Origin: Promethearchaeota archaeon
Lineage (GTDB): Archaea; Asgardarchaeota; Lokiarchaeia; Sigyniarchaeales; SOKP01
Assembly: GCA_019058365.1 (NCBI GenBank)
Contig: JAHPZE010000021.1
Coordinates: 1-64,000, forward strand
Direction of reading: 5' to 3'
DNA length: 64,000 bases
Shown here: positions 7,995 to 23,486 of the stretch, in pieces
How positions within the stretch are numbered: position 1 is the stretch's first letter
Layout of the letters: each line of letters starts with the position of its first letter
Notes under the pieces: generated by a model
Told to the model about the DNA's origin: nothing
Seen by the model: the letters and a program-made list of their open reading frames with translations, nothing else
Databases searched by the model: none
Translations under genes and position numbers: made by a program

Positions 7995-10900
7995 TTAACC
8001 TTTTTTCTTTTTTGCAGTTTCTTTAATCATTCTTTTAAGATTATCAACTTCTTCCCTTTCTTTGGCTTTCCGCAGTTCTTCTTGGAATTTGCTTCTTTGT
8101 TTTTCCTTTTTTCCAATTTCCTCTATAAGTTCTTGTTTGATTTTTAGTAAATCTCCCATCTCTTTACGAAACTCTTTTGCTTCATCTTTAATCTTCTTTC
8201 TTTTCTGTTTTTCAACTGATTTTTGTTCTTGTCTCTTCTTTTCAATTAGACCTATTACCTCATCTGATAATTCACCAACCTCTCCAATCATATTCTTTAA
8301 TTTTGCTTCTTCATCTTTTCTACGGCTATCTTCTAAAGCTCTTTGCTTATCTAATTGATCTTGAATAGATTGCATCCTAAGTTCCTCTTTTTTAACTCTT
8401 TCTTCTAATAGTTTTGCATTTTTAATTTCGGTTTCAATATATTTTACTTCTTCATCCCATCCAATTTCCTTGAACTTCATTATTGCAGAGTTAAAATTTT
8501 GATATGCCTTTTCAAAATTATGATAGGATGACCATTTTTTGCCTTCATCAATAAGTTTTAATCCATCATCTCTTAATTTATCAACTTGTCGCCTTTTCAG
8601 AATTGCATTTCTATATTGCTTTTCTTGCTTTCGTTTTAACTTTTCTTGTTCTAACCGTCTTTTTTTCACTTCTTCTTGAAATACTGCATATTCATTTTGC
8701 CTTTGTAGGTGAGCTTGTTCTTCTAATCTTTTCTTTTCAAAAAAATTCGCCTGTTCTTGTTGTAAATCTTTTATCAGAGCATTTAAGTTTTTTATCTCTG
8801 GTTCCCAACCAATATTTTCTTCTAAAATATGCCTTGCTTGAATATACAGAGATATTGATTTATTATAGTTGGGAATACGATGCTTCAGGTACTTTCCAGC
8901 TTCTTCTAACAGAGAATATGCTGATTCTCTTACACTCATTTGCTCTTGGATCATTTTTTCTCGTTCTTTCAGTGCTGATTGTCGAGCTTCTCTTTTTTCT
9001 TTTTCTTGCCTCTTTCTTTCTTCAATAAGGGCTTTTAAAGCTTTTTCTTCTTCTAATCGCTCTAATTCTTTTTGATACTTTAAGCCTTCTTCTTCTTCCT
9101 TTTGATGTTTTATTTTTTTTATTTTAAATATAGTATTATTTATAGAATCAGTTGGAAATTGTAATTCATTCAAAATATTTCCCGCCCTTCTATAACAAAC
9201 TATTGCATTATCATAATTTTGTTCTTTTAGAAAGCGTTCTCCTTCATCTAAAATCTTAAATGCTTGTTCTTTTCTTTCTTCTAACTTTGACTTTAGTTGT
9301 TCCATTTTTAAAATTTCTAATTCTTTTGTTTTCAAACGTTCTTTTTCAATCTGTAAACTTTCCGCTACTTTTTGATGAATATTCCACTCTTTTCGTTCTC
9401 TTTGAATGCTTTGTGTTAATTCTTTTTGTTTTGTCAGTTGATGTTCTCGTTTTTTCTCTTGAACTTTAAGAATTAATTCTCTTATTGAATCTGTTGGGAA
9501 CGCAATTTCACTTAAAATTAATTCCGCTGCATGATAATATTCCAAAGATTTATCATATTGCGATTGATTCATAAATATTTCAGCATCTTCAAGAAGATTA
9601 AAAGCTTCTTCCTTCCTTTTTTCCATGTATACCTGAATTTCTCTTCTTTTTTCTAATTCTGCTTGTCTAACTTTCATTTTCATCTCGTTTATTCTTACAC
9701 CCTCTGCAATTTTCTTTTGAAATCTACGTTCTTCTTGTTCTTCTTGAAATTGTAACTCTAGACTTTTTTGTTTAGCAATCAATTTCTCTTTATTTTTCTC
9801 TTGAATTTTATAAATCATTTCCCTAATTGCGTCAGTTGGGAATCCAATTTCATTTAAGAATAACTCTGCTTGACGATATTTTTCAATTGCTTGAGGATAT
9901 TGCTGGTTGTTAAAATATTTTTCTCCTTTATCCATTAAATCAAAAGCTTCCACTTTACGTTTTTCCATTATTTGTATTAACTTTTCCCGTTTTTGCATCT
10001 CTATCTCTTTAACTTTTAACCTTTTTTGTTCTCTCTGCATGTCTTCAGAAATTTTTTGCTGAAATTGTAATTCCTCTTTTTGTTGCTTTTTTAATAATTC
10101 AATTTCTAATTCTTTCTTTCTTTCAATTTCTCTTTTCCTAATTTCAATGGTTTTAACTGTATCTTGGAGCAATTTTAAATAATCACTTGTCCATCCTATT
10201 TCAGTCAGAAGTTTTATTGCATTTTGATAGTTCTGTAAGGCATTATGATAATTTTGTTGACCAAGTAATGTATAGCCATTATTTATTAATTTAAAGGCTT
10301 CTTGTTGCGTAGTTAAAGTTTGTGTAGTAATCAACTGTTTTGCTTGGATTAATGATTTTTGTTCTAGTACTTTTTCTTGCTCTATCTTCCTCAAATCATT
10401 TATCTTTTCCATAAATGCGTCAGTTTCTTTTTCCGTTTCTAAAGCTTCCTGAATAGCTTTCTGTTTTAATAGATCTTTTTCTCTTTTTTTGTATTCAATC
10501 TCTTGAATTGCTTTATTTATGATTGGAATTTCATCAATCCATTGAATTTCCGCAAAAATGTTAGCTACATCATGATAAACTTCAATAGCTTCATCAGATT
10601 TACCTTGTGAAAGTAAATCTTGAGATTTTTCTAATAACTTAAATGCATCTTCTTTTCTTTTCTCACGATAAGCAATTTCTTTTTCTATTTCTCTAAGTTT
10701 AATCTCTTGCTTCTTTAGTTCTTCTCTTTGTATTTTCATCTCATCGATAAGTCTTTGTTGAAATAGTTGTTCTTCTTTTTCCTCTTCTAAAGCAGTTTTT
10801 AAATCTTGCTGCTTTTTTAATTCCATCTCACGTTTCTTATTTTCAATAGTTATAATTGAATTTTGTATTAATTCAATTTCACTTTCCCATTGAATTTCTT

Positions 10901-13900
10901 TAAAGATTTGAGCTGCAGTTCGATATAATACAATTGCATCATCAAACTTTCCTTTGTCGATTTGCTTTTGAGCTTCCTCTAATTTATTAAATGCTTGTTC
11001 CTTTTTCTGTTCATAAATTTTCTGTAATTCTTCTTGTTTTAATAGTTCAGCTTGTTTTTCTTTCATTTTATGTTGTTCTAATTTTATTTTTTCTAAAACC
11101 TGTTGTTGAAATAGCAGTTCTTCTTGTTCTCTTCTTGATTTTATTTCTAATTCTTTAAATTTATTTAAATCTTCTTCTCTTTTTTTCTCTTGAATCTTTT
11201 GAATCATTTCTTTAATAACTGTAGATGGAAAATTTATTTCATTTAATATCAATTCAGCTTGATGATATCTATCGATTGATTTATCGTATTCCCCTTTATT
11301 TAATAATGTTTCAGCGTCATCCATTATCTTAAAAGCCTCTAGCTTGCGATTCTCCATACTTCTTGCGAGATCTTCTCTCTTTTGCAATTCAATTTCTTTG
11401 GATTTAAATTTCTCTCGCTCTACCTGCATATATTCACTGATTTTCTTCTGAAACACATCATCCTCTTTTTGACGTTTTAATGAAGCCTCAAATTCTAATT
11501 GTTTTTCTTTTTCGCTCTCTTTTTTCTTTATGTTAATTGTTTGAATTGTATCATGCAATAATTTTAAATATCCTTCTCCCCAGCCAATATCCTTTAAAAG
11601 CTCTATTGCTTTTCTATAATTGTTTATTGCTTCATCAAAATTTTCAGCTTCTAGTAGAATGTCTCCATCTTCAATTAATCTAAATCCTTCTTGCTGTTCT
11701 GTTAAGTTTTGAGCAGAAATGCGCTTTTGTTGTTCCATTAAATCTTTTTCTTTCAAAAAATCCGTTTTTTCTCTCTCTCTTTGATATCTAATTCGATCAA
11801 TAAATGCTTTATCTTCAGTTTCTTTTTTAATTGCCTTTTGAAGGAGCTTTTGTTTACTTAATTCATTCTCTCTTTTTTTATTTTCAATACCATTGATTGC
11901 TTCTTGGATCACTGAAATTTCATCAGTCCATTGAATCTGAGCGAACATATTTGCCACGTTATAATATATTTCAAGTGCATCATCAAATTTTCTGTGCGAA
12001 ACAAAATCTTGAGCCTTTTCTAGTAAATCGAATGCCTCCTTCTTCTTTTCTTCACGATAGGAAAGCTCTTTTTCTCTTTCTCTTAAAACAATTTCTCTTT
12101 CCATAAATTTTTCGCGTTGAGTCTTCATTTCTTTTGTGATGAGTTCTTGAAATATCTTTTCTCGTTTTTCACGTTTTAATTCAGCTTGCAATTTTAACTG
12201 ATTCTGCAATTCTGCTTCTCTTTTCCTATTTTCAATTTCTACAATAGAATTTTGGATTAGAGTGATTTCATTTTGCCATTCAATGTCCGCAAAAAAGTTT
12301 ATAGCATATTGGAGGATCTCAATTGCATCGTCAAAATTATTTTGCTTTACATTTTCTTGTGCCTCTTCTAGTAATTTAAAACCTGCTTCTCTTTTTTCCT
12401 CACGATATTGTGATTCCTTTTCACGTTCCACTAACTCAATCTCTTTTGTTTTTAGTTTTTCACGTTCTTGTTGTAAATATTTTGAAATTTGTTTTTGGAA
12501 TGTTTCCTCACTTTTTTCTCTCTCAATAGCATCTTGCAGTTTTTTTTGTTTTTCGATGTTTTGCTGTCTTTGTAAATCTTCAACTTCTCTTATCGAATCC
12601 TCAATTAATGGAATTTCTTCTGTCCATTGAATTTCAGCAAATATATTTGCTGCATTTTGATATGCTAGAACTGTATCTTCATAGTTGCCTTTTTTTAAGG
12701 ACTCAATCGCAGAATCCAAAAATTCAAACGCAATATTTTTGCGATGTTCAAAAAACTTAATTTCTTTTTCAGTATCTTTTACAATAATTTCTTTCTTTTT
12801 TAAACGATCTCGCTCTTTATTTAAAAGAATAGCAATTTGCTTTTGAAAATCTAATTCTTCTCGTCTTCTTTCTTCTACTTTCTTCTGTTCTTCATATTTT
12901 TTTGTAAGCCGACTATGCTTCAGATTTTCTATATTTGAAATTGTGTTCTTGATCATTGATTTATAAACCTCCCAACCAGAGCCTAAATCTGTGAGTATTT
13001 CTAAAGCCTGGTTGTATTCTTTTATGGCATCATCAAAATTTTTTTCTTTTAATATTTCATCTGCTTTATCTAATATTATGAAAAGATTTTCTTCTTCCAA
13101 TACTTCATCGCTTCTTTTTGCTTCAAACTCCTTTCTCTTTGTATCTAATTCTTTTGCTGATTGGACTATCTGCTCTTTTTGCTTTTTATAAATTGAGTCT
13201 TGAAGAATCATTAAATCCTTTTGTCTTCTCTCTTTTAAATAATCAGCTGCAAGTTCTCTTTTTTGCTTACTTTTTATTCCATCAATTAAACTTATAATAG
13301 GCTGGACATATGAATCCCATTCTATTGATTTAAGAAGTTGAACTGCCTCATCTAATTTTTCAATTGCTGAATCATATCTTTTTTCCCTTTCAAGTCTGTT
13401 TCCAATATCTATCAGATTAAATGCTTTCATCTGAATTTGTTCATCATGCTGTTTCTTCACTTCAAATTCAATCAATTTTTCCTTTTTCATTTCTGCTTCT
13501 TTTTCTGAAACAATTTTTTGGTCCTCAATGTTACTTGTTAACTGCAGCGCTTCTTGCTTTTGCCGAACTTGAAGAGACTCATAATATTTTTTATCTGTTT
13601 TAAGTTTTTCAATTAATAATTGAATATTTTGAGTCTGAGCATCCCATCCGATAGATTTTAGTAATTCAATAGCTCTTTCATAATTCATTATCGCATTATC
13701 GAATTTCTTATCTTTTTCAAATATTTTAGCAGCATCAATATGGGCAAAAGCTTGATTTTGTATATCTTCTTCATGTTTTTTTTGTACTTGGAATTTGTTA
13801 ATAATTTCTCCTTTTTCAACACTGCTCTTTTGTCCAAACATACCAACAACTTGAGGTTTCTCGTCTGATAATACAGTAGGAATCTGTTGTTTCAAGTCCA

Positions 13901-14378
13901 CTTCCTGTTCTTGAGGGTGCTGAACAGCTTTTTGCTGTTTTAAATCTCTTGTTAGTTTATGAATTTTCAATTTTATATTCTCTAATTGAGTTTCAGACCA
14001 TCCTGCTTGAACTAATAGCTTTACTGCAGACAAATATTGTTGGATAGCATCTTCAAAGAAACCATCAAATTCCAGTTTCTTTGCGCCTTCTAATAAAATA
14101 AAAGCTTGATCTTGCAATTGTTCAATTTGAGCTTGAGTTTGAACTCGCTGATATAATGTCTCTTTTTGGATAAAATCCTTTAACTCACCAATCCTATCAT
14201 AAATCTCTTGGATTCTATGAATCAAAAACCCACTCTGCTTAAGAAGATCGGCTGCTTTTTGATAATTTGAAATAGCATTTTCTACATCTTTCTCTACTTC
14301 AAAATTTTGAGCAAGTTCTAAAAATTTTATAGCTTCTTGCGCTAATTCTTCTGGTTTTTGCAATTTTACCGAAGCCAC
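7995..14378 (-). CDS. Giant helical repeat protein (2127 aa): 18 MIT/TPR-like units joined by E/K/R/Q-rich helical linkers
   Basis: Recurring AF-x-LLE-x-A...(F/Y)D-x-AI-x2-Y-x2-A...EI-x-(W/F) motif, roughly every 115 aa. No TM segment or signal peptide is visible. Confidence 0.85.
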   Translation of the reverse strand: MASVKLQKPEELAQEAIKFLELAQNFEVEKDVENAISNYQKAADLLKQSGFLIHRIQEIYDRIGELKDFIQKETLYQRVQTQAQIEQLQDQAFILLEGAKKLEFDGFFEDAIQQYLSAVKLLVQAGWSETQLENIKLKIHKLTRDLKQQKAVQHPQEQEVDLKQQIPTVLSDEKPQVVGMFGQKSSVEKGEIINKFQVQKKHEEDIQNQAFAHIDAAKIFEKDKKFDNAIMNYERAIELLKSIGWDAQTQNIQLLIEKLKTDKKYYESLQVRQKQEALQLTSNIEDQKIVSEKEAEMKKEKLIEFEVKKQHDEQIQMKAFNLIDIGNRLEREKRYDSAIEKLDEAVQLLKSIEWDSYVQPIISLIDGIKSKQKRELAADYLKERRQKDLMILQDSIYKKQKEQIVQSAKELDTKRKEFEAKRSDEVLEEENLFIILDKADEILKEKNFDDAIKEYNQALEILTDLGSGWEVYKSMIKNTISNIENLKHSRLTKKYEEQKKVEERRREELDFQKQIAILLNKERDRLKKKEIIVKDTEKEIKFFEHRKNIAFEFLDSAIESLKKGNYEDTVLAYQNAANIFAEIQWTEEIPLIEDSIREVEDLQRQQNIEKQKKLQDAIEREKSEETFQKQISKYLQQEREKLKTKEIELVEREKESQYREEKREAGFKLLEEAQENVKQNNFDDAIEILQYAINFFADIEWQNEITLIQNSIVEIENRKREAELQNQLKLQAELKREKREKIFQELITKEMKTQREKFMEREIVLREREKELSYREEKKKEAFDLLEKAQDFVSHRKFDDALEIYYNVANMFAQIQWTDEISVIQEAINGIENKKRENELSKQKLLQKAIKKETEDKAFIDRIRYQREREKTDFLKEKDLMEQQKRISAQNLTEQQEGFRLIEDGDILLEAENFDEAINNYRKAIELLKDIGWGEGYLKLLHDTIQTINIKKKESEKEKQLEFEASLKRQKEDDVFQKKISEYMQVEREKFKSKEIELQKREDLARSMENRKLEAFKIMDDAETLLNKGEYDKSIDRYHQAELILNEINFPSTVIKEMIQKIQEKKREEDLNKFKELEIKSRREQEELLFQQQVLEKIKLEQHKMKEKQAELLKQEELQKIYEQKKEQAFNKLEEAQKQIDKGKFDDAIVLYRTAAQIFKEIQWESEIELIQNSIITIENKKREMELKKQQDLKTALEEEKEEQLFQQRLIDEMKIQREELKKQEIKLREIEKEIAYREKRKEDAFKLLEKSQDLLSQGKSDEAIEVYHDVANIFAEIQWIDEIPIINKAIQEIEYKKREKDLLKQKAIQEALETEKETDAFMEKINDLRKIEQEKVLEQKSLIQAKQLITTQTLTTQQEAFKLINNGYTLLGQQNYHNALQNYQNAIKLLTEIGWTSDYLKLLQDTVKTIEIRKREIERKKELEIELLKKQQKEELQFQQKISEDMQREQKRLKVKEIEMQKREKLIQIMEKRKVEAFDLMDKGEKYFNNQQYPQAIEKYRQAELFLNEIGFPTDAIREMIYKIQEKNKEKLIAKQKSLELQFQEEQEERRFQKKIAEGVRINEMKMKVRQAELEKRREIQVYMEKRKEEAFNLLEDAEIFMNQSQYDKSLEYYHAAELILSEIAFPTDSIRELILKVQEKKREHQLTKQKELTQSIQRERKEWNIHQKVAESLQIEKERLKTKELEILKMEQLKSKLEERKEQAFKILDEGERFLKEQNYDNAIVCYRRAGNILNELQFPTDSINNTIFKIKKIKHQKEEEEGLKYQKELERLEEEKALKALIEERKRQEKEKREARQSALKEREKMIQEQMSVRESAYSLLEEAGKYLKHRIPNYNKSISLYIQARHILEENIGWEPEIKNLNALIKDLQQEQANFFEKKRLEEQAHLQRQNEYAVFQEEVKKRRLEQEKLKRKQEKQYRNAILKRRQVDKLRDDGLKLIDEGKKWSSYHNFEKAYQNFNSAIMKFKEIGWDEEVKYIETEIKNAKLLEERVKKEELRMQSIQDQLDKQRALEDSRRKDEEAKLKNMIGEVGELSDEVIGLIEKKRQEQKSVEKQKRKKIKDEAKEFRKEMGDLLKIKQELIEEIGKKEKQRSKFQEELRKAKEREEVDNLKRMIKETAKKKKG

Positions 14379-16768: not shown

Positions 16769-17293
16769 ATGTCAAGTTTTAAACTAAAAGTATTATTAAC
16801 TGGCGCCGCTGCTGTGGGAAAGACTAGTCTTGTTCAGAGATTCATCAAAAACAGGTTCCAAGCAAATTATAAATTAACTGTTGGCGTAGATATTTTAACT
16901 AAAGATGTAGAATTCAGACAAGGTGAAATAGCAACACTTTCTATATGGGATATTGGAGGACAACAGAGGTTTGAGTTTATCCGTAGTACATTTTACAAAG
17001 GAGCAGCTGGAGCTTTATTAGTCTTTGACTTAACTCGAGAACAGACATACACGGAAACAAGGAAATGGCTTACGGAGATTCGTCAATTCGCCGGTGAGAA
17101 CATTCCATTTGTTTTGATTGGGAATAAAGCAGATTTAATGGAAGATGTTGGCGTAGTAATTGATCGAGATGAAGCCCGTTCATTTGCAGAAAATGAGGGG
17201 AGTATTTATATAGAAACTTCTGCTAAGACTGGGATTAATGTTGATGAATCTTTTACAGAGTTAACCCGTCGAATAATTGACTCAAGAACTTAA
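16769..17293 (+). CDS. Rab-like small GTPase
   Basis: G1 GAAAVGKT, G3 WDIGGQ, G4 NKAD, G5 SAK. RabF-like motifs TVGVD, LSIWD, RFEFI, FYKGA, LVFDLT. Confidence 0.93.
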   Translation: MSSFKLKVLLTGAAAVGKTSLVQRFIKNRFQANYKLTVGVDILTKDVEFRQGEIATLSIWDIGGQQRFEFIRSTFYKGAAGALLVFDLTREQTYTETRKWLTEIRQFAGENIPFVLIGNKADLMEDVGVVIDRDEARSFAENEGSIYIETSAKTGINVDESFTELTRRIIDSRT

Positions 17294-20114: not shown

Positions 20115-22052
20115 CTAATCATTTAAAAGATTCTGCAATTCTTGAATTTGGCCATCAATTTTGTTCATTAATAAATCTATTTTCTCTTTCTTTTCTTGAA
20201 GTTCTTCTGATGTGATTTCCCCAGTGAGTTCCTTCATATCAAGATCTAATAACATCTTAGAAATATCTGCTTTCTTAATTTTCAATTCCAATAACGATTT
20301 TTTTAATTCTTCTATCTGTTTTATATCTAAAACTGTAGGTTTTTGTTCAACTTGGTTAGGAATCGGAGGAGTTATTACTGCTTTGGATTCAAGTGTAATT
20401 TTTGATTTTGGAGGAGTTATTACTGCTTTGGGTTCAAGTGTAGTTTTTAGTGTTGGAGGAGTTTTAGACGGAGTTGGACTTATACTTGTCTTTTTTTCCA
20501 TTAATTTTAACGGCGATACTGATACAAGAGTTTTTGGCTCATCCGCATTTTCTACTAGACTAACCGGAGACATTTTCAATTTATCTTTTGCATCTTTTGG
20601 GACAAAATTTACTGATTTTGGTCTAGATTTTACCATAAAATCTTCTGGATTTAGTGTTAAACCAATTCCCTCTGGTTTTATTTCGGACTCTTTTGGTGGT
20701 TCAATTTCTTTAACCTTTTGAGTATTTACTTCAGTTACTTTTTCTTTATCATATAAAGTTGAAATTTCTGAAGGTCTTTTAATTTTGGGTGGTCCTATTG
20801 GTTTTTGTTCAGTTGGTAATTTTTGGGGAGTATTTAATGATTGCTCTTGGGGAGGTAATTGGGGAGGCAATTTGGGAGGCAATGGGGGCTCTGGTATTGC
20901 TGGAGTTGGAGGAGAATGCGCTTTTTCTAATTCCTTAAGTTTTTTATCCATTGTTGGAGGTTTTTGTTCTACAGGCTCAATAGATGTTGCCGGTGTGGGT
21001 TGTGGAGCGCCCACTGTATCTAACATATCTTTAATTTTTTGTGATTTATCAAAGAATTCTCTACCTAACGAATCATCTCCTAATTCTAAACATAAATCAC
21101 TAATTTTGTCAAATAAAAATGCTGCTTTATTAAAATCAGCGTCTTTAAGGGCTCTTACTGCTTCTTCAGTTAATTTATCTCTCTCAAGCAATGGCTTCAA
21201 GAGAGGTGAGACTTCTGCACTCATTTCTAAAATATCAGCAATTATTTGAATCATTTTATCTCGATTTTTAGGTTCTAATGCAATCATTGAGTATGCTTTT
21301 AATCCAAGTATTTTTTCAATTTGAACGGGATTCAAAGCTTCTTTTAAATCTTGTTTATTCCCTATTACTGCAGATTGAGCGTTAGGTGCTTGTTCTTTTA
21401 TTAATTCTAAAAAATATTTGCTCTTTTCAATGTTTTCTAATGAAGAGTCAGTAATTAAAAGAACCGCATCACTTCCCTTGATAAAATTGTTCCATAAATA
21501 ACTAAATTGCTCTTGTCCAGCGAAATCCCATAAATGAAAGTGTAATTTTCCAATTTTTATAGTGGCAATATCTCCCGTAATGGTTGGTATATGTTGCATG
21601 GGAATTTCATCAGCTTTGATTAATTTCGTGATAGTAGTTTTTCCTACTCCCGAAAAACCTATTAGAGATATTTTAGGTCGTAAATTTCTATGGATTGCAT
21701 CTATTGTAGGATCAAAAACTTCAAATGTTTTTGCATCAAAACGATGCTGTAATATATCTTCAAATAAACTTAAAAATTCAGTTCTACATTTTTCCAATTC
21801 TTTTTTTATATTTTCAAATTTATCAGTCAAACCTGTTACAAATAAAAAAATAAGCTTAGTATCGTTATCTGTGATGTAAGATATTCTAAATTTATAATAA
21901 TCGTGAAATGCTATCTTGGATTCAGTTTTAATCAAAGCTTCATTAATGATATCTTCAACTAGAAGATTTAATACTTCTTGTTTTAGGGCTTTTCCAAAAT
22001 GTCTATAATATAAAAGTTCATTGCTTCTGTACACAAATACCTGTCTTAAAAT
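20115..22052 (-). CDS. Multidomain small GTPase: longin-like N-domain, Arf-like G domain, MIT-like helical bundle, Pro-rich linker and C-terminal coiled coil (ORF track start 22034; possible ATT start 22052)
   Basis: GFSGVGKT, IPTI, LWDFAGQ, LW..F, NKQDL. The N-terminal beta-hairpin/helix pattern (LIFLFVTG..D) is longin-like. Confidence 0.88.
   Translation of the reverse strand: MLRQVFVYRSNELLYYRHFGKALKQEVLNLLVEDIINEALIKTESKIAFHDYYKFRISYITDNDTKLIFLFVTGLTDKFENIKKELEKCRTEFLSLFEDILQHRFDAKTFEVFDPTIDAIHRNLRPKISLIGFSGVGKTTITKLIKADEIPMQHIPTITGDIATIKIGKLHFHLWDFAGQEQFSYLWNNFIKGSDAVLLITDSSLENIEKSKYFLELIKEQAPNAQSAVIGNKQDLKEALNPVQIEKILGLKAYSMIALEPKNRDKMIQIIADILEMSAEVSPLLKPLLERDKLTEEAVRALKDADFNKAAFLFDKISDLCLELGDDSLGREFFDKSQKIKDMLDTVGAPQPTPATSIEPVEQKPPTMDKKLKELEKAHSPPTPAIPEPPLPPKLPPQLPPQEQSLNTPQKLPTEQKPIGPPKIKRPSEISTLYDKEKVTEVNTQKVKEIEPPKESEIKPEGIGLTLNPEDFMVKSRPKSVNFVPKDAKDKLKMSPVSLVENADEPKTLVSVSPLKLMEKKTSISPTPSKTPPTLKTTLEPKAVITPPKSKITLESKAVITPPIPNQVEQKPTVLDIKQIEELKKSLLELKIKKADISKMLLDLDMKELTGEITSEELQEKKEKIDLLMNKIDGQIQELQNLLND
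20365..20448. repeat. Intragenic tandem repeat, period 45 bp (two copies)
   Basis: GGAGGAGTTATTACTGCTTTGG(A/G)TTCAAGTGTA starts at 20365 and at 20410; it encodes K(T/I)TLE(P/S)KAVITPP twice. Confidence 0.9.
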
Positions 22053-22092
22053 AATCGTTCACCATGATTTATAAAATTATACTTAATACAAC

Positions 22093-22587
22093 TTAACTTG
22101 AAATGTGTTTAACTAAATCCTTTATAATTGAATATTTATCTTTTCTAATTTTTTCGTCTTCTAAGGTTTCTTCAATTTTTGAGATTTCTTTTGAAAAGTC
22201 AAAAACTGAAAAACTTTTAACTTCCTCTTCTGTTGTTATATTTACACTCAACTTCTTTAAAAAAACACTAACACTTGGCATAAACTTTGCTAAATTTACA
22301 TTTAAATCTAATTTTGAGATAAGGATTAATTCCTTGCTAAATGTAAACAGATAATTGTACTTTTCTGATTCTAACGCGAAGGAGTTTATCTTATTTAAAC
22401 TTAGTGCATTCGCAATTTCTTTAGAATTGGAAATTAAGGATAATATCCCATGGGGAATAATTCTTCCTTTCGCAAACTCCTTGATTAACGATCCCAATAT
22501 AATTCCATACTTATTTGCTATAGCACATTCAGCATTTAAGTCAGACTTTAATTGAGAGATTATTTCCTCATATTTAACTTGACTCAT
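22093..22587 (-). CDS. Roadblock/LC7-like domain protein
   Basis: Helix, then CAIANKYGIILGS hairpin, helix, three strands and helix: roadblock topology. It lies directly upstream of the GTPase. Confidence 0.65.
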   Translation of the reverse strand: MSQVKYEEIISQLKSDLNAECAIANKYGIILGSLIKEFAKGRIIPHGILSLISNSKEIANALSLNKINSFALESEKYNYLFTFSKELILISKLDLNVNLAKFMPSVSVFLKKLSVNITTEEEVKSFSVFDFSKEISKIEETLEDEKIRKDKYSIIKDLVKHISS

Positions 22588-22700: not shown

Positions 22701-23486
22701 TTGAAAACTTACAAAACGCGTTTTTTGGAAAAAGAATCTGATATTACAATTATATCTGAATCAAAGAAGGCAATTATACGTGCGAAAAAGAGTTTTTATT
22801 TCCACCGAAAGAATTTAGAGAAATATGTACTAAAAGATAACCAGTTTCTAAATTCTTTTTCTCCACTTAAAATAAATACAAATTTTAAAATCATTAAAAT
22901 TATGGCTGAAGTAGCAGAGATATGTGATGTAGGACCTATGGCTGCGGTAGCTGGGGCGTTGGCAGATTTAATGCTTGAAACAATGAAATCTAAAGATCCT
23001 GATTATATACCTTCCAAAATTGCTTTAGTTGAAAATGGAGGAGAAATTGCAATTGATTCCAAAAAACCAATAACTATCGCATTATATGCAGGCGAAAATG
23101 AATTGAATCTTAATTTAGGTTTTTTAGTTAAAGAAAGCGATTGTCCTCTGGGGATTGGAACAAGCTCCGCAACAGTGGGTCATGCAATTAGCTTAGGACA
23201 AGCCGATGCGGTTACAATCTTTGCAAAAAATGCTGCTCTAGCAGATGCAGCAGCAACAAAAATATGCAATTTAGTTAAAGGAATAGATATTGAGAAATCC
23301 ATAAAAAAGGGATTAGATGCTGTAGATGATATTGACGGGCTCATAGGTGCATTTATATCTAGAGAAAATAAAGTTGGTCAGACAGGAAAACTCCCTCAAC
23401 TAGTAAAGATTGAAGGAGATAAACAAAAAATTTTGAATGAAAAGCAGGACATTGAATTTCCAGGTGACTATGAGATATTTAAATAA
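22701..23486 (+). CDS. UPF0280 family (ApbE-like) protein
   Basis: VGPMAAVAGALAD, VENGGEIA, TSSATVGHAISLGQADAVT, LADAAAT. Confidence 0.9.
   Translation: MKTYKTRFLEKESDITIISESKKAIIRAKKSFYFHRKNLEKYVLKDNQFLNSFSPLKINTNFKIIKIMAEVAEICDVGPMAAVAGALADLMLETMKSKDPDYIPSKIALVENGGEIAIDSKKPITIALYAGENELNLNLGFLVKESDCPLGIGTSSATVGHAISLGQADAVTIFAKNAALADAAATKICNLVKGIDIEKSIKKGLDAVDDIDGLIGAFISRENKVGQTGKLPQLVKIEGDKQKILNEKQDIEFPGDYEIFK

Follow-up and report, generated by a model that had tools for sequence, protein, structure and literature searches.

A divergent roadblock gene paired with a longin-ArfL GTPase gene in Lokiarchaeia

In MglA-MglB, the gene of the roadblock protein MglB adjoins that of the small GTPase MglA. 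The C-terminal helix of MglB acts on MglA and drives nucleotide exchange (PMC6785124), and in Asgard archaea an operon of a roadblock, a Rab-like GTPase and a DENN protein has been proposed to form a regulator module (Liu et al., bioRxiv 10.1101/2020.10.19.343400). Roadblock and longin dimers are established GTPase platforms according to the searchable passages of Tran et al. 2024 (PMC10933270), which also state that Asgard gene order rarely tells which regulator serves which GTPase and that GTPase genes of the cultured Asgard archaeon MK-D1 as a rule share no operon with a roadblock gene. Longin fusions have been on record since 2016 for ArfL, a GTPase group published as Asgard-only, separate from Arf/ArfR and not ancestral to Arf; this is stated in the part of PMC4917890 that summarises Klinger et al. 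2016.

We analysed a 64,000-nt stretch of the Promethearchaeota archaeon contig JAHPZE010000021.1 (the window), in which a preliminary description had pointed to a roadblock-like gene upstream of a GTPase gene. By the names of its closest homologs, the source genome belongs to Lokiarchaeia. The locus resembles MglA-MglB (of Myxococcus and Thermus) in that a small GTPase is encoded beside a roadblock protein of about 160 aa, which seems to extend into a further helix at its C-terminus. It differs in the GTPase itself, which is of the ArfL group, reportedly lacks the Switch I Arg and comprises, besides its G domain, a longin domain, a helical bundle, a linker and a C-terminal hairpin. With the roadblock-Rab-like GTPase-DENN operon it shares a conserved Asgard joining of a roadblock and a small GTPase, but it involves another GTPase group, has no DENN protein and, in the genomes searched, turned up in Lokiarchaeia alone. 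Longin, roadblock and Ras-superfamily G-domain folds also make up TRAPP, Mon1-Ccz1, Ragulator-Rag and SRX-SRbeta; however, there is no one-to-one orthology with these eukaryotic platforms, the locus here specifies no lipid anchor or amphipathic N-helix, and in Rags the roadblock lies C-terminal to the G domain. Since the MK-D1 ortholog of the GTPase (WP_147664160.1) already appears as 'LGX' (longin-GTPase-X) in the searchable part of Tran et al. and is classed as 'ArfL, tree' in Table S3 of Vargova et al. (bioRxiv 10.1101/2024.02.28.582541), the GTPase is a known, uncharacterised family member, and it is the pairing and the anatomy of the tail that vary the known theme of a roadblock plus a GTPase. 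The pairing is undescribed in the searchable literature, where the passages on longin-ArfL fusions make no mention of the upstream roadblock and do not dissect the 'X' part, and it is an exception to the statement of Tran et al. on operons.

Gene layout and the start of the GTPase gene

Both ORFs lie on the minus strand of the window, the GTPase ORF at 20115-22034 if a GTG start is taken (Table 1). Alignment of orthologs shifts this start 18 nt upstream to an ATT at 22052, yielding a protein of 645 aa and a gap of 40 nt from the roadblock stop codon, in agreement with the spacing of about 40 bp given at the outset. At the aligned position, ATT, ATA or ATC (ATH) is found in 49 of the 54 orthologs of family f1 and ATG in 8 of 9 outgroup orthologs, so that the start goes from ATG in families f2/f4 to ATH in f1. 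No in-frame ATG, GTG or TTG alternative occurs further upstream in 44 of the 49 ATH-start orthologs, and one f1 ortholog (L059) has an in-frame stop immediately before its ATT. Moreover, GGTGR stands exactly 6 nt before the start in 40/54 f1 GTPase orthologs. In most database entries of the GTPase family the N-terminus is truncated or the start mis-called.

Table 1. Features of the roadblock-GTPase locus, in window coordinates.
Feature	Position	Strand	Remark
Divergent roadblock protein	22093-22587	-	164 aa; profile matches PDB 7yh1/9jue
Shine-Dalgarno-like GGTGA	22059-22063	-	6 nt before ATT start
Putative non-canonical ATT start codon of GTPase gene	22050-22052	-	ortholog alignment
Longin domain, aa 1-123	21684-22052	-	AF2 topology and structural matches
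ArfL-group small GTPase domain, aa 124-278	21219-21683	-	Pfam Arf and invariant motifs
Three-helix bundle, TPR/MIT-like, aa 286-346	21015-21197	-	AF2; HMM
Disordered Pro/Lys/Glu/Ser/Thr-rich linker, aa 347-576	20325-21014	-	pLDDT mostly <50
Conserved 35-aa island in linker, NPEDFMVK core	20562-20666	-	identity vs flanks
C-terminal helical hairpin with GEI turn, aa 577-644	20115-20324	-	pLDDT about 90

Genome-wide in the source genome, ATH accounts for 33 of the 93 start codons at a GGTGR spacing of 6 (ATG for 19) and for 5-18 of 80-100 at other GGTGR spacings, with housekeeping-type genes (e.g., probable uL15) among the examples. In this lineage, initiation at codons other than AUG looks widespread; a literature search on the subject returned nothing specific.

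Anatomy of the two proteins

Single-sequence searches of Pfam, NCBIfam and PDB yielded no match for the upstream protein, and an AF2 model from a shallow alignment reached a pLDDT of 39.6. A profile of its family (41 sequences), in turn, matched the PDB roadblocks 7yh1 (E 2.7e-4) and 9jue (E 0.005) as well as other roadblock-like ORFs of the source genome (E down to 1.7e-8), and language-model features place the protein with Robl_LC7 clusters in a protein atlas. Judged by these profile matches, the 164-aa protein is a divergent roadblock, homologous over its core, as the preliminary description had read it. Beyond this core (about aa 1-113), residues 125-164 make up a conserved C-terminal tail that is specific to the family and ends in an amphipathic helix (hydrophobic moment about 0.5); column conservation is 73% in the terminal segment vs. 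62% in the core, and an HMM of the tail matches this gene alone within the source genome. The tail recalls the MglB C-terminal helix by analogy only, and its amphipathic helix may work like that helix. The roadblock having no Pfam match and the GTPase start being mis-called in databases may explain why the pair was overlooked.

The AF2 model of the GTPase (94-sequence alignment; full-length pTM 0.47) is ordered in the longin domain, G domain, bundle and C-terminal hairpin and disordered in the linker, and thereby agrees with the domain order proposed earlier. The N-terminal domain of about 120 aa has the topology b1-b2-a1-b3-b4-b5-a2-a3 (pLDDT 80-90), and the best structural matches of aa 1-125, at Z 13.5-14.4, include Vamp7 (Z 14.4; rmsd 2.8 over 116 aligned residues of its longin), Sec22 (Z 14.2) and synbindin (Z 14.0), with TRAPP subunits and SRX at Z 11.8-14. 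Since these are SNARE and TRAPP longins, the assignment of a longin domain of the GTPase's own holds. Candidacy as a longin SNARE was rejected, the C-terminus being a helix-turn-helix hairpin with a hydrophilic end and having no continuous SNARE helix or membrane anchor; likewise, no SNARE-motif family was among the 25 commonest Pfam matches of hairpin members.

The G domain carries G1 (GxxGxGKT), G2 (T157), G3 (DxxGQ with Q180) and G4 (NKQD) and an atypical G5, and the G1-G4 motifs and Gln180 are invariant across 34 diverse orthologs. Across the order its identity is 83%, vs. 14% for the linker. The protein is 61% identical to WP_147664160.1 over aa 1-348, with the same synteny and the same hairpin, and by this orthology with a member placed in the published tree it belongs to the ArfL group. 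Membership of the Arf family or ArfR was rejected on the N-terminus, which is a longin domain and not an amphipathic helix before the G domain, and on switch II, with an invariant DFAGQ here vs. DVGGQ in Arf1. Rag/Gtr was rejected as well, in that a helical bundle and not a roadblock follows the G domain and the Pfam Arf profile (E 1.5e-21) beats Gtr1_RagA (E 1.5e-5).

The bundle consists of three helices (pLDDT 80-93) and is common to the tail-less paralogs described below, its HMM matching both of those in the source genome. It had been called MIT-like and compared to the repeat of a giant protein encoded nearby. Three helices are indeed present, but the MIT match (E 0.056, in 1/9 bundles) is sub-threshold and weak TPR-type matches are more frequent. 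The comparison stands in so far as hhalign aligns bundle and repeat at P 92%; a specific kinship was rejected, as the repeat HMM places many TPR proteins ahead and misses the GTPase even at E<=10, which makes the likeness a generic TPR/MIT-level one. The giant protein itself (2127 aa; 7995-14378, minus strand) comprises at least 15 repeats, each of an MIT/TPR-like three-helix unit and a charged coiled coil, and has relatives on two other contigs of the source genome (C44, 1110 aa; C18, 1053 aa).

The linker was described as a Pro-rich stretch of about 230 aa, and both its length (230 aa) and its composition (19% Pro) are as stated. Polyproline is not, with a longest Pro run of 2. Orthologous linkers range in length between 96 and 356 aa, with a Pro content of 6-28%. 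In family f1, about 14% identity outside the 35-aa island compares with a mean of 54% within it; the island, which was not found in f2/f4 orthologs, is a candidate short binding motif on this conservation.

At the C-terminus, the GEITSEEL coiled coil of the preliminary description corresponds to a hairpin with the GEIT sequence at its turn, conserved at 50%. The suggested SHOCT/CdvA likeness came out weak and sub-threshold: this protein's hairpin scores 12.3 bits with SHOCT against a cut-off of 27 and gives no CdvA match, and hairpin members match SHOCT in 15/34 cases (best E 0.0035) and CdvA in 13/34 (best E 3e-5), about as often as they weakly match the lipoate ligase, TbpB and GvpG profiles. 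A hairpin profile found 91 matches in 1.84 billion proteins; all those of 180 aa or more, to which family assignment was applied, carry it C-terminally in the longin-ArfL GTPase family or are fragments of such proteins. Among matches of that length, the hairpin with its GEI turn is, by this profile search, family-specific. No usable match to it was obtained in the protein atlas or PDB, fold-search lists being filled by longin and G domains and barely probing bundle and hairpin.

Pairing, neighbours and paralogs

Co-occurrence and synteny had been named as a check on the pair, and both speak for it. The roadblock gene is present in 117 of the 151 genomes of the class, including 38 of the 40 high-quality ones, and nearly always as a single copy. 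Among 70 loci examined, one ended at a contig edge; in 64 of the 69 decidable ones, spread across Lokiarchaeia and including MK-D1, the GTPase gene directly follows the roadblock gene in the same orientation (10/10 in f2/f4). In the remaining five, from genomes of two genera, both genes are retained apart from each other, the GTPase staying beside a PHP gene and the roadblock beside a UPF0280 gene. Therefore, the adjacency that had been called a self-contained operon is real, but that term is too strong.

As a control, other neighbours were followed in the f1 loci and proved syntenic too (UPF0280 gene 30/40, aspartokinase about 18/40, PHP about 16/40), so that part of the pairing signal is general gene-order conservation; moreover, since the sampled genomes are kin and mostly of one family, the synteny counts are not independent. 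At the MK-D1 and G055 loci, compared over 16-20 kb, the pair alone is retained of the window's genes. The giant gene, 5.7 kb from the pair in the window, was not found in these two regions, and its distance falls beyond the 6 kb spanned by the f1 ortholog loci. Further neighbours are the UPF0280/PRK04334-type gene (22701-23486, plus strand), divergent from the roadblock gene and beside it in 30/40 loci, split genomes included, and, close to the pair in at least 6 f1 loci, a gene for a Rab-like (RasL-type) GTPase of 174 aa that lacks a CAAX end (16769-17293, plus strand). In an RNA run of MK-D1 (contigs only), coverage is even over the locus and flanking DNA and hence shows neither transcription nor co-transcription, and a sigma-70 promoter/terminator scan, a model unsuited to archaea, remained at chance level.

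Among 121 genomes of the phylum, in a search of limited sensitivity, the longin-G-bundle core was found in Lokiarchaeia only, except that a single further family has a longin-G relative of reduced length. The source genome has two tail-less paralogs of the GTPase (54-57% identity). Both of these longin-ArfL-bundle genes, L078 (C36:45336-47405) and L079 (C33:8497-10540), lie directly downstream of a Gtr1/RagA-type GTPase gene (Pfam E 1.8e-22 and 5e-20, respectively). The combination of a Rag-type gene and a tail-less paralog recurs in genomes G102 and G028 (L088, L090), other tail-less paralogs standing alone; a Rag-ArfL gene pair is possible from these neighbours. The idea that all longin-ArfL paralogs lie behind a roadblock-bearing gene was rejected, as one subgroup only follows a Rag-type gene, and the C-terminus of the Rag-type gene showed no match to the roadblock described here. 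Further longin-GTPase paralogs of the source genome (C16:214124-215713, 530 aa, degenerate; C21:41667-42578, 303 aa, longin-G only) resemble MK-D1 WP_162306730 and WP_147664152. Elsewhere, a tandem of two full-length longin-ArfL genes occurs in genome G112 (L073, on contig C11), where the roadblock gene is separate, and G028, G102 and G112 each encode a further, diverged paralog of 697 aa close to the roadblock, in opposite orientation.

A proposed two-gene GTPase module and its alternatives

The reading we favor, at roughly even chances on sequence and gene order, is a two-gene unit in which an ArfL GTPase switch would be served by a cognate roadblock platform and a linker would tether the hairpin to a partner. 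It is based on the domain anatomy, the near-invariant G motifs, the near single-copy status and the adjacency across the order. The G domain would cycle between GTP and GDP; with the catalytic Gln kept and the Switch I Arg reportedly absent, it probably needs a GAP, as the searchable passages of PMC10933270 propose may be the case for MK-D1 longin GTPases lacking this Arg. A role of the roadblock as regulator of the GTPase is plausible by analogy: either as an MglB-like homodimer or together with the longin of the GTPase, it would form a platform setting the nucleotide state, presumably as GAP and/or GEF. The bundle would belong to the longin-ArfL core as a constant element, and the linker would be a length-tolerant spacer that presents the hairpin, along with the f1 island, to a specific partner, the output being a protein-protein tether and not a polyproline signal. 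A complex prediction with aa 1-348 and one roadblock copy scored 0.00, which is uninformative either way. The more elaborate version, in which the roadblock and the GTPase's longin form a mixed GAP/GEF platform and the tether delivers the hairpin to a membrane or cytoskeletal target, we consider rather unlikely.

Alternatively, the two genes might be co-located and perhaps co-expressed without being cognate, a longin homodimer of the GTPase's own regulating it and the roadblock serving other GTPases or a scaffold. The five split genomes and the syntenic but unrelated f1 neighbours are in keeping with this, as are the source genome's 60 GTPase-like matches, its several further roadblock-like ORFs and the published AF2 models which, in the searchable part of their source, suggest that some longin GTPases homodimerise alone. 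The tail-less paralogs, which have no adjacent standalone roadblock gene, count against the favored reading. However, the pair outlasts every other neighbour in family f2, and both genes are near single-copy with matching distributions, leaving this explanation doubtful though a serious one. Distinctly less probable is a latch in cis, in which the flexible linker would let the hairpin fold back and lock the longin or G domain in an autoinhibited state, to be opened by the roadblock or GTP. Longin SNAREs, whose longins are the closest structural matches here, close on their own C-terminal helix in an analogous way, and the hairpin was seen only in fusion with this longin-GTPase, its conservation persisting behind a linker of free length; yet paralogs lacking linker or hairpin are common, the full-length model gives no sign of a fixed arrangement, and a SNARE motif or membrane anchor is missing.

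The coupling to cytoskeletal or ESCRT partners through polyproline ligands that was originally proposed, in which the linker would recruit profilin or ESCRT/SH3-type proteins while bundle and hairpin connect to actin or ESCRT-III, fares worst, and we hold it to be very improbable. It could draw on the linker containing the 5th most Pro-rich 60-mer among the 2833 ORFs of the source genome, on frequent PxxP motifs, on the TPR/MIT-like bundle and on the weak CdvA and SHOCT matches of hairpin members. Against it, Pro falls to 6-7% in some of the variable linkers of orthologs, runs of Pro are as short as noted above, and the ESCRT- and profilin-type motifs looked for are not conserved among orthologs (P(S/T)AP 1/35, PPxY 0/35, YPxL 0/35, MIM2-like 6/35, PPPPP 4/35). 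Loki profilins, moreover, reportedly do not bind polyproline (PMC8410842), the neighbours examined included no recognisable ESCRT or actin gene, and hairpin matches to the lipoate ligase, TbpB and GvpG profiles are about as frequent as those to CdvA.

For the origin of eukaryotes the bearing of the two-gene unit is limited, because eukaryotes have inherited no descendant of ArfL and the pair turned up in Lokiarchaeia alone. If true, the mixed-platform reading would provide a two-gene prokaryotic counterpart of TRAPP/Ragulator-type control and tethering in a cultured Asgard archaeon. Small GTPases and roadblock/longin proteins number in the dozens in Asgard genomes, and the conserved, near single-copy pair in cultured MK-D1 offers a ready test case for an Asgard roadblock acting as GAP/GEF on a longin-fused GTPase.
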